Shown one piece after another: positions 153 through 55,530 of a stretch of 64,000 bases of DNA. Below the pieces are notes generated by a model. It was not told the DNA's origin and made no database searches. It was given only the letters and a program-made list of their open reading frames with translations. The stretch comes from Eledone cirrhosa (lineage: Eukaryota), in assembly GCA_964016885.1 (NCBI GenBank), contig OZ024758.1:20212001-20276000 (forward strand). Direction: 5' to 3'. Each line of letters starts with the position of its first letter. The first letter of the stretch is position 1. The position numbers were made by a program, and so were the translations under genes.

Positions 153-607
153 AATATCAACGTGCTGTCCTCACTCTTGTATGGAAGTGAAACATGGCAC
201 CTTAAAACCAGCCAAGAGAAGAAGTTGGACGCATTCGATTCCAGATGTCTGCGAAAGATCCTGAGAATTAAATGGAGTGACCATGTAACAAACCAGGAAG
301 TCAGGAACCGCACCAACCAGCAGCTAGTCTCTTCTACCATCTGCAAGCGACGCCTGGGCTGGTTTGGACATGCGTTGAGACTTCCCCCGGAGAGACTGGC
401 GAACCAAGTACTTAAATGGAGCCGACAGGGAAGCAGATGGATAGGGCGACCCAATATGAACTGGCGCCAGACATTTGAGAGGGACCTGCGAGCGACAAAC
501 AGACAATAGCGGGACGCTGTGCAACTGTCTGCTGACCGAACGCGATGGATCACTATGATTGCTCATGCGTCGCAAGACGCGGGAGCTTCTGAGTCCGAGT
601 CTGAGTT
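153..607 (+). mobile_element. 5'-truncated RTE-clade LINE, 3' end of RT ORF plus short-repeat tail
   Basis: Translation NVLSSLLYGSETW...CLRKILRIKWSDHVTNQEV...RRLGWFGHALR...GRPNMNW is the typical RTE ORF C-terminus. The frame continues past a premature TAG (507-509) as RDAVQLSADRTRW. Ends in CTGAGT-CCGAGT-CTGAGT. Confidence 0.9.
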
Positions 608-17201: not shown

Positions 17202-17297
17202 TGAAAGTGATTGCTTATATATACGAAGATAGTGGTCAGACAAATGAACACTCAACGCATGTAAGGCGAGTACAAGTTGTATTATAATAGCCAAATA

Positions 17298-17326
17298 CTA
17301 GCAGAATGGCCCGCCGTTGTTCGGGA
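17298..17326 (-). mobile_element. Possible Helitron 3' terminus
   Basis: Minus strand reads CCCG-aacaacgg-CGGG hairpin, about 8 nt, then CTAG|T, the canonical Helitron end. Only a short fragment is visible. Confidence 0.4.
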
Positions 17327-17446
17327 TGTTCTCTATGGTTCTTATATATTTGATGTATATTTATCCTTATCGAGCCTCGTGAAATATATACGTTTGCTAA
17401 TATTTTGTTATCGTGTATGAAAAAATATATGTACACGAATATATAA

Positions 17447-18013
17447 TTAAACAATTAAGTTAAAAATGTACATCCACATATGTATACTGAAATACTAGTA
17501 TGCATATGAATACACACACGTGTACATATGTAGATGTACCGAGTTTTTCACTGGTCACTTTACTGTGAGTGTCCAGCTATTCTGTATGTAAACACGCAGA
17601 CAAACCGGTTTTTAGAGTCATACTGGTTTTTGAGGAAACACCTTTCCTCTATTTTCCAGAAAGCCAGACAAGGAATATTGGACTAGTTTCGATGTTGTTA
17701 CATCTCATCAGCAATATTTACCTATCTTCCGGCCTTTCTAGAGAATCGTAAAAGCACATATCGTTATATGCTTTTTCTGTGAAAATTAGTAGTGGGCAGA
17801 CTAATTTGCATAGAGCGTAAGTACGTACCGGTTCAGCGGAGACGATAAAAACAAATAACGAAACGAAATTAAATTTCGTTTCGTTTGTAACTCACTTTTG
17901 TATGACTGACGCTTAAACAATTAAGTTAAAAATGTACATCCACATATGTATACTGAAATACTAGTATGCATATGAATACACACACGTGTACATATGTAGA
18001 TGTACCGAGTTTT
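17447..18013 (-). mobile_element. Retrozyme/PLE-like unit: 365-bp structured insert between identical 101-bp direct repeats
   Basis: Repeats at 17447-17547 and 17913-18013. The insert carries a perfect hammerhead and several hairpins. Confidence 0.7.
17674..17718 (-). ncRNA. Minimal type-I hammerhead ribozyme (intact core)
   Basis: Minus strand: AATATTG-CTGATGA-GATG taacaa CATC-GAAA-CTAG-TC^CAATATT. 7-bp stem I, stem II, palindromic stem III ACTAGT, GUC cleavage triplet. Confidence 0.92.
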
Positions 18014-18041
18014 GTTTTTAATATATAATTACATATATATA

Positions 18042-18130
<89 letters not shown>

Positions 18131-18535
18131 ACAGATTAAAGTTTAAGCAAATAATCGCTGCTTTCACCGTTAACGAGATCTTCTGAAACTAAAAATCAAT
18201 CTGTGAACGCAGAATTAAATATTTCGTAAAACGTTACAGAATATATATATATATATATATATACACATACATATAGCGTCAAAATGTAATGCAGACATCA
18301 GACATACAGACATATATTATAAGGGCGCAAGGTTATATCTATGTATCTATCTATAAAGAAAAACTAAGAATTATAGAGAGAGATCGCTAAATCGCCTAAT
18401 GCGCTCCCTACGCCATTGGACATTTTAAATTTATTTTTGCTCAACGCTCTCACAGGACCATAAGTTTTACATGAGTAAAGTTTGAAAACAATAGGTTGGC
18501 TGGTTCTCGAGTTATATAAATATATAGTACAGTTC

Positions 18536-22417: not shown

Positions 22418-24438
22418 ACTTTGAAATATTTTGGCCACTGTTGGCCCAGGCCATGTCTAACTTAATAGCACCACCTGGCGAAGTCTTTCAATCAGGATTT
22501 GGGCACCATGGCCCATTCGAGAAGAGAATTACTGTTTGCGGAGACATATCCGGGTGTGGGTGGTTTGTCCGGGGATTACTTGGAGGAATTTGTCCAAAGG
22601 ACTTCTTGAATTTTGTGTGGTCAGTTTCTGTTTTGACGTGTCCTGGTGTGATGTTGAAGAGAGCAGGGCCGATTGAGGTGAAATAATTGTGCCGTATTAT
22701 TGTTATGAGTTGCGATTTAGATTTTTGAATGGGACGGATAGCACGGGGCCCAAGCCTTGGGTGTATCTTGAAGGCGATGCCAACATCATTTGGGCAGTGA
22801 TGATGGAACATTTTCCACATCATGCAGATAATATAACGCTCACGGCGACGTTGGAGTGAGTAAAGTTTCAGGTTTTCTAATCGACCCCAGTAGTCAAGTT
22901 CTGACATGCCATCTATCTTTTTCGTGATTGCCCTTTGAGGAGCTTCAAGTTTCATGATACTTTGTTTCGTGTGGGAGACCACAGTGGACAACAGTATTCA
23001 AGGTGTGGTCGGGCAAAAGTAGAGAAGAGAAGGATAATGGTGCGGGAATCTCTCGACTGGAAGGTTCTGAGGATCCAGGAACACATTCTGCGGGCCATGT
23101 CAACTTTGCTGCTTATATGCGTGGTCCAGCTTATGTTGCTGTCCACGGTTACTCCCAAGTCTCTGATGTTGTTAGATGCCACGAGAGTTTCCCCGGATGG
23201 AAGGGAGTACGGGTGTTTCAGAGCATCCTCTTTTCCAAAGTGGATCAGTTCGAATTTGTCTTCGTTCAGTAACATGTTGTTCTTTTCTGCCCATTGGGTA
23301 ACAGCCAGTAGGTCTGACTGAAGGCTTATCCGGTCATCCACGCCATTGATGACCTTTTGGAGCTTGGAATCATCAGCGAAAATTTTAATGTTGCTGTGTT
23401 TGATGATGTCAGTGATGTCATTAATATAGATGATGAAGAGAAGTGGGCCCAACACAGTGCCTTGTGGGACTCCACTACTGACTTTGGCTGGGCTTGATTT
23501 GACTCCCTCAACTACAACATGTTGGGTTCTGTTTGACAGGAAGCTCTTGATCCACTGCAGCAGCTTTCCAGTGACACCAATATTGGACAGCTTTCTCAGA
23601 AGAATGTTATGATCAACCCTGTCAAAGGCCTTGCTGAAATCAAGGTAGATAACATCAGTGTTGGAACCCTCTCCCAAGGCTCTCAAAATGTCATCAAAGT
23701 GATGCAGTAGCTGCGTCAGGCAATCCCTTCCATTACGGAATCCATGCTGGTTGGAGTTCAGCATATTGTTACTCTCAAGGAAGTGGGTCATTCGCGATCT
23801 CACCACTCGCTCAAATACCTTAATGATATGAGAGGTGAGTGAGATTGGACGGTAATTCACGGCAAGGGATGTGTTTCCCTTTTTGAAAACTGGGACAACA
23901 GACTGGGATAGAAGGTTTTCTGGCACATAACCAGCATCCAGTGAGTTCCGCCACAGATTGACAAGAGGAGATGCAAGTTGGTGTTGACACGCCTTCAAGA
24001 CACAAGCAGGGAACCTATCGGGACCTACTGCTGAATTATGCTTGATTTCCTTTATTGCCGCCAAGACATCAGGGGCGCCAAACGTTATGTCCGATAAGGT
24101 GTAATGGGGAGTAACATCGCCGATACAGCCCAGATCGGCCATATCAGGATTGCTGAAAACAGAGCAGTATTGTTTCTGCAGTATCTCACCCATGGTTTTA
24201 GCATTGTCTTGAAGAGTGCCATTTTCATCGATTAGAGGGCCAACAGTAGAGCCAGTGATTTTGTGTTTTTTTGCAAATGAAAAGAACACTTTGGGATTGA
24301 GTTTGATCTTCTCAATGGCCCAGGCCTCTTCAGCTCTTCTCTGATTGTTGATGAGGGACATTATGTTGTATTGGAGGTTATGTTTTTTAATCTCTAGTGA
24401 TGAAATGGCAGTCAAGTTGATGTGTTGCTGCTGACAGT
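22417..24438 (-). mobile_element. 5'-truncated CR1-group LINE with reverse transcriptase
   Basis: ORF 22952-24415 has YRPISLTS, QHGFR, YLDFSKAFD, GVPQGTVLGPLLF, FADD and RDLGV...RPHLEY. It continues after a frameshift (~22975) as KLEAPQR...LYSLQRRR. No APE domain is present. The short 3' UTR has a GGCC hairpin. Confidence 0.95.
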
Positions 24439-24439
24439 A

Positions 24440-53645: not shown

Positions 53646-54090
53646 TATACGATATTAAACAAATGGAAACTATATTTATAAAACCATATTTATTTCATTA
53701 TACATAATTTCAGGGATACCATATTAAAAATATGGCATGCCTTCGTCAGCTAAAATACAATATATAAACAGTTTTATAAATAATTTTGACGTACCATAAT
53801 ATAAGCGACCATTAAATTAGGAGGCTGCCTAATTTAAATCGTCGCTTATATTATGGTACGTCAAAATTATTTATAAAAACTGTTTATATATTGTATTTTA
53901 TCTGACGAAGGCATGCCATATTTTTAATATGGTATCCCTGAAATATGTATAATGAAATAAATATGGTTTTATAAATATAGTTTCCATTTGTTTAATATCG
54001 TATATCTACTCCAAAAACGTGTCGAGTGCTTTATATCAGTTATAAAATATTTACTTGTTGTAACCCAACAATTTTAAATAAAACTATTGC

Positions 54091-55469: not shown

Positions 55470-55530
55470 TATTTTATTATACGAATTTCAAGGCTACCAA
55501 TATTTTAGTACGCTTTCGTCAGATAAGATA
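55470..55530 (-). ncRNA. Type-I hammerhead (diverged)
   Basis: TATCTTAT-CTGACGA-AAG..TACTAA..TTGGTA..CTT-GAAA-TTCGTA-TA^ATAAAATA. Confidence 0.78.

Follow-up and report, generated by a model that had tools for sequence, protein, structure and literature searches.

In a stretch of 64,000 nt from Eledone cirrhosa (contig OZ024758.1, positions 20,212,001 to 20,276,000), referred to here as the window, a hammerhead motif lies between two identical direct repeats. The locus raises the question whether these repeats belong to the element or to the host, and which machinery inserted the unit. In the first-pass annotation two readings had been offered, a young non-LTR retrozyme consisting of a 466-nt monomer plus a partial repeat, or an insertion with an unusually long target duplication.

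The unit covers 17447..18013 on the minus strand and forms one main arm of 567 nt, corresponding to 1.22 monomers. Monomer positions were counted from the predicted hammerhead cut, with position 1 at 17680. In this numbering the 3' end of the arm is located at a 'short' site, S, and the 5' end at monomer position 134. A single monomer period (17447..17912, minus strand, 466 nt, 36% GC) shows two differences from the youngest arrays of the family. Two bases, at monomer positions 27 and 368, are private to the window copy. The direct repeats at 17447..17547 (copy 1, minus strand, monomer 134-234) and 17913..18013 (copy 2, minus strand, the overlap into the next monomer) are exactly identical over 101 bp with a period of 466, as had been noticed before. 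Their length results from the 567-nt S arm minus the 466-nt monomer. A long AU-rich hairpin (17468-17539) sits within copy 1. The 'tail' segment between the S end and a second 3' end, L, is found at 17845..17919 (minus strand). No ORF of at least 90 aa was detected in the unit, in agreement with the absence of ORFs noted earlier. An ORF with RT plus GIY-YIG, the mark of an autonomous Penelope-like element (PLE), is likewise absent from the unit. In a sister array (L100) the sole ORF of at least 30 aa per monomer has 50 aa and is antisense. Elsewhere in the window, a LINE-type RT ORF of 495 aa is located at 22488-24439 (minus strand), and a further fragment at 153-509 (plus strand) was recognized by eye.

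The type I hammerhead motif was assigned to 17672..17722 on the minus strand, with the core CUGAUGA..GAAA..GUC, C3 at 17711 and a predicted cut at 17681/17680. The predicted stems comprise 7+2 bp with a UA bulge for stem I, 4-5 bp for stem II and 2 bp for stem III, the latter around a palindromic 2-nt UA loop (ACUAGU). The annotation had called this a flawless GUC-cleaving hammerhead. Core, strand and GUC triplet were verified, but 'flawless' does not apply, because stem III has 2 bp and is not formed in the monomer fold. A palindromic stem III of this size likely needs a second hammerhead; for animals, hammerheads with a short palindromic helix III are described as the usual kind, which needs a dimer for its activity (PMC4209133). 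The Rfam model HH9 matched 17658-17729 with an E value of 2.6e-8 and 38.9 bits. This is below the gathering score of 52, and hence a gathering scan of the window gave nothing.

The 365-nt middle of the unit folds with z = -6.1, and none of 100 shuffles was equally stable. The computed fold contains the outward extension of stem I as well as the hairpins near 17750-17775, 17785-17807 and 17857-17885, the last one within the tail segment. The insert had also been described as rod-like; both the linear and the circular fold are branched, with about 65% of the bases paired. Between the window family and a sister family, compensatory changes were found in 10 of 58 pairs (0 of 500 shuffles; seven related sequences), three each in the hammerhead stems I and II. 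In this small sample of sequences, the changes in these two stems suggest that the ribozyme fold is under selection.

With a strict hammerhead pattern, 2,994 exact matches to the ribozyme core were obtained in the 3.0-Gb genome, and none with the reversed pattern as control. A genome search with the 365-nt middle gave 853 candidates; the 40 that were scored had 98-100% identity and were often 466 apart. Since period-466 copies of the middle abound, the 101-mer is part of the monomer, so that the former description as a 365-bp insert between repeats has to be given up. The annotation had proposed checking whether insert and 101-mer co-occur in tandem arrays, and indeed the 101-mer was detected inside each monomer of arrays on many contigs. 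Together with the core matches, arrays with a period of 466 and 98-100% identity support the reading as a young non-LTR retrozyme. The periods of the family range from 463 to 470 and the GC content from 0.36 to 0.38, and the units are short, non-coding and in tandem. Subfamilies of 466, 469 and 467 nt are distinguished by about 26-60 differing positions. The arrays are homogeneous, with 0-8 differences per monomer and with variants fixed within individual arrays (owing to overlapping stretches, as many as about 4 units from a single array entered this count twice). Most copies lie within (TA)n as head-to-head arms, the longest with about 15 monomers. A 2026 preprint calls a copy 'active' if it has two or more complete hammerheads in succession; such runs occur in the family arrays, whereas the window copy has one hammerhead. 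Therefore, release of a 466-nt circle by double cleavage is impossible for the window copy, and circles would come from arrays.

A looser core pattern resulted in 31,132 matches, the window family included. They belong mostly to a sister family with units of 422-538 nt, which is roughly ten times as abundant (about 28,000 matches by subtraction). Judged from the loci L165-L194, L125, L142, L143 and L079, this family has roughly 65-75% identity to the window family and the same order of hairpins; its S and L ends were found to be equivalent by eye. At the level of sequence, each property tested for an animal non-LTR retrozyme was found in the window family. The unit is likely a previously undescribed member of this class, and would work as a non-autonomous passenger of PLEs. 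Another minimal hammerhead-like family (CUGACGA..GAAA, triplet read as AUA), probably a PLE-type repeat, was observed in the window at 53660-54005 and about 55522. It forms a head-to-head palindromic pair at 53749 (minus strand) and 53902 (plus strand) beside (TA)n, with a related motif at 55522 (minus strand).

For 55 unique insertions the ends of the arms were determined. They were taken from the best identity matches, the first listed hammerhead matches on contig C1 and one copy beside a PLE. The duplicate L068 of L067 was not entered, and for an insertion at 5.74 Mb of C1 continuity over the middle 5 kb was assumed. At S (about monomer 227-234) or L (297-302), two sites about 70 nt apart, 88 of the 94 arm 3' ends were located. 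All inverted pairs are head-to-head. Of 34 copies with two alignable arms and both ends at S or L, 33 combine S with L, one has S twice and none L twice (binomial p 2e-9 against independent choice). Outside this count are 16 single-armed copies and five with one end elsewhere; two of the five are joined to a Neptune-type element and three to other sequence or rearranged. In a second set, picked by an L end without a following A, the partner end was at 227-236 in 9/9 unique two-armed copies. These 9 insertions correspond to 13 rows (29 of 30 loci); the other 16 rows were single-armed, array interiors, edge-cut, chimeric (L262) or a locus already covered. In the whole genome 2,042 exact junctions of L end and (TA)n were counted. 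Identical insertions with identical flanks were seen for L067/L068 and L245-L247, probably as segmental or assembly duplicates.

The 5' ends are scattered over the monomer. An enrichment at the cut was rejected, with 3 of 86 ends within 5 nt of it (p 0.28). Most inversion junctions show an overlap of 0-6 nt or a few extra bases. At sites other than (TA)n the target duplications have 12-16 nt.

The window copy follows the same rule, with the main arm ending at S, a stub ending at L and a 12-bp duplication around both. The stub, a vestigial inverted second arm of 10 nt, lies at 18011..18020 on the plus strand and corresponds to monomer 292-301, ending at the L site; 3 nt are common to the main arm. 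For its 7 added bases the chance of occurring there is about 3e-4, or 2e-3 if six end positions are allowed. This stub, and with it the Penelope-type anatomy of the insertion, had been overlooked before. In a scripted test of the 16 single-armed copies, clear opposite-type stubs of 10-11 nt were detected in three (window copy, L021 and L090). A further stub is visible by eye in L080; the remaining single-armed copies have 6 nt or less. The duplicated 12-mer AATATATAATTA had been reported just outside both ends of the unit, and it was found at 17438..17449 (left copy, plus strand), where its final 3 nt are shared with the 3' end of the element, and at 18020..18031 (right copy, plus strand), next to (TA)n. 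In 4 of 7 paralogous copies of the left-flank repeat the 12-mer is present once and followed by (TA)n. One left-flank paralogue runs on into the right-hand repeat of the window. Taken as one locus, the window copy is ordinary and probably dead on arrival. The flanks on both sides (about 17294-17449 and 18126-18231) are the termini of a different repeat that is abundant and associated with TA; in the right flank CAGAAGA replaces CUGANGA within a hammerhead-like stretch.

PLEs were examined in the same genome, which has 10,596 GIY-YIG candidates. The sampled copies have an RT, a C-terminal GIY-YIG and a CX4CXXC linker, the latter as given for Neptune and Nematis (PMC8557442). A young Neptune-type family (L132:4309-7122, minus strand; also L133, L137, L140, L141 and L143) has an open frame of 938 aa and a tail of about 65 nt. 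From the identity of 98.4-99.4% between its copies, this PLE family is as young as the retrozyme. A pattern search near its ends gave no hammerhead. Neptune-type PLEs terminate in (TA)n, either with a short end or with a long one, and the two end types are combined in each of the two-armed copies that were inspected (2/2). No pLTR homologous to the monomer was detected by BLAST in 50 GIY-YIG loci of the 10,596 candidates, which represent 49 distinct places and one chimera extension. Two exclusion patterns and tblastn of four PLE proteins against the retrozyme loci likewise gave no homologous pLTR. Direct joins of retrozyme and Neptune-type element in the same orientation were observed at L131 (2520-5000), L075/L151 (L151:780-1070) and L207 (1380-1540), the last one falling at the predicted cut site of the sister family. 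The joins are a hint only, because one of the three is long+long, against the pairing of S with L, and because neighbours may be fused by deletion.

On these grounds we consider it probable that the unit is a young, non-coding 466-nt hammerhead retrozyme with the footprint of a PLE, inserted by a borrowed PLE RT-endonuclease. Arrays would be transcribed, neighbouring hammerheads would pair their palindromic stems III and excise monomers, and ligation would give circles. At an AT-rich site the PLE enzyme would then make one nick per strand, with about 12-14 nt between the nicks, which would provide two 3' ends. Staggered nicks with two 3' overhangs are concluded from the positions of duplication and arms. 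From both ends reverse transcription would start on one and the same RNA variant, with S as the start for one cDNA and L, about 70 nt off, for its partner. The cDNAs would circle the template for a varying distance before their 5' ends are linked, frequently through microhomology. In the window copy, copying would have stopped after 567 nt in the S arm and after 10 nt in the L arm. In this scheme we infer transcription, dimer cleavage, ligation, staggered nicks and two-end priming on one RNA variant. A more specific version, which is put forward tentatively and with the balance somewhat against it, is a PLE dimer on one circular RNA that primes two rolling-circle cDNAs with its subunits fixed at S and L.

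The nature of the template is indicated by the arms themselves. They traverse the cut site many times, up to about 15 monomers, and thus a cleaved linear monomer cannot have been copied except by an enzyme able to jump from one RNA end to the other. In 14 of 32 insertions the two arms have alleles in common that are missing from all other sampled insertions, and mixing of the two main subfamilies between arms was found in none of the 32. Alleles private to one arm number 64, compared with 37 common to both, 'private' being relative to 32 sampled of about 2,000 insertions. The comparison favours one monomer variant per event, for which a circle would be the best match; a homogeneous multimeric transcript is also compatible. 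The idea of a ligation scar at the cut was dropped, with 0/172 family monomers carrying one and 367 substitutions against 365 in the control for the sister family. From run X4 (type unknown), a single self-closing contig of 495 nt with a period of 465 and no flanking repeats was obtained for 17545-18009 of the window. It is not evidence, because a collapsed tandem array looks alike.

If the hammerhead were incidental, a linear transcript that reads through an array and stays uncleaved could have served for the PLE-driven two-ended insertion without any circle. We regard this as unlikely, though worth serious consideration. Hammerhead cleavage was dispensable for a lizard PLE in vitro (PMC11167929), 8/9 Xenopus retrozyme dimers are reported as uncleaved (10.64898/2026.07.22.740005), no ligation scar was found in the monomers compared, and a homogeneous source array would likewise yield homogeneous daughters. 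However, the array-specific variants, fixed in each sampled monomer, need a single-monomer bottleneck, stems I and II carry compensatory changes between families, and related animal elements are reported to accumulate as circles (PMC7229834).

Other rivals concern the second arm, the mobilizing enzyme and the 101-mer. It is very improbable that one arm alone was primed on RNA and the inverted arm came about when the first cDNA folded back and was copied, or through a subsequent rearrangement of the DNA. Such copying would account for the alleles common to both arms and for a few near-symmetric junctions (169/180, 266/262 and 344/328), and for PLE inversions an origin by self-priming was suggested (PMC3846280). 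Yet neither arm is contained in the other at L087 and L142, the fixed stop of the second arm differs from that of the first, and the longer arm may be either one. There is hardly any likelihood that a LINE, such as one of those represented by RT fragments in other parts of the window, mobilized the unit by twin priming of the ordinary kind. LINE-like RT ORFs do occur within the window, and twin priming of L1 yields 5' inversions. But a poly(A) or 3' repeat tail is absent, and the two fixed internal starts and the preference for (TA)n agree with the PLEs found in the same genome. The chance that a 365-bp insertion duplicated 101 bp of host DNA is negligible. The two repeats are identical, as this would require, but arrays on many contigs have the 101-mer within each of their monomers, and at paralogous empty sites it is missing while the 12-mer is present a single time. 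The unusually long target duplication considered in the annotation is refuted by these arrays and empty sites.

Like the animal non-LTR retrozymes described so far, the family consists of short, non-coding tandem units of low GC (below 45-50%), each with a single type I hammerhead; copies number in the thousands, and the target duplication is longer than 4 bp (here 12-16). The monomer of 466 nt exceeds the 170-400 nt given for invertebrate retrozymes and is within the 51-972 bp of a vertebrate survey. Head-to-head arms, fixed paired ends and targeting of (TA)n are absent from the animal retrozyme descriptions compared. Circles have been demonstrated for animal retrozymes; for the Eledone family they are a prediction. 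Mobilization by PLEs was proposed for animal retrozymes, with circles in coral, mussel and axolotl (PMC7229834), and the vertebrate survey argued that they are non-autonomous PLEs (10.64898/2026.07.22.740005).

The likeness to endonuclease-positive PLEs (Neptune, Poseidon and Naiad) and to Chlamys, as far as described in the sources compared, extends to an inverted 5'-truncated arm, a tail at one end, two starts downstream of the hammerhead, AT-rich or (TA)n targets, short duplications and tandem copies. For PLE insertions, inverted copies and a tail often at one end only are reported (PMC8557442, PMC3846280), the tail is set by two internal start sites of the RT (PMC11167929), and a non-autonomous Chlamys pair has been described (PMC9977147). 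In the sole PLE studied in vitro both strands had the same start sites, and cleavage by the hammerhead was unneeded for insertion (PMC11167929). Unlike these PLEs the retrozyme has no ORF and arms of up to about 15 monomers, and in 50 loci pLTR homology was not found. Its tail has about 70 nt compared with 30-40 nt in published PLEs, and its duplication 12-16 nt compared with 8-10 nt. Plant LTR retrozymes, in the descriptions compared, are likewise non-coding hammerhead retroelements thought to move via circular RNA. They are characterized by type III hammerheads inside LTRs, PBS/PPT and duplications of 4 bp. In contrast, the hammerhead of the window unit is of type I and lies outside the 101-bp repeat, and the duplication has 12 bp.

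A search by title and start of abstract, with Repbase, Dfam and most subscription journals outside its scope, gave no published account of the family or of end-pairing counts for retrozymes. The class itself is known, and the earlier case for mobilization by PLEs came from co-occurrence and pLTR similarity. New here is evidence at the level of single insertions, with a complete PLE footprint on a retrozyme, start sites that are paired almost strictly, and arms that both stem from a single monomer variant. What makes the family of interest is its insertion record, not the window copy. In the literature compared, the PLE cycle and the integration step of retrozymes are described as unresolved. 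With a non-coding substrate of 466 nt, its two mapped starts and young candidate enzymes from one genome, both questions can be tested in vitro. If a PLE dimer on one circular RNA does prime both arms, the 'optional' tail of PLEs would be an obligatory asymmetry of one complex, and thousands of young copies in Eledone would record the integration of retrozymes and the origin of PLE inversions and tails.
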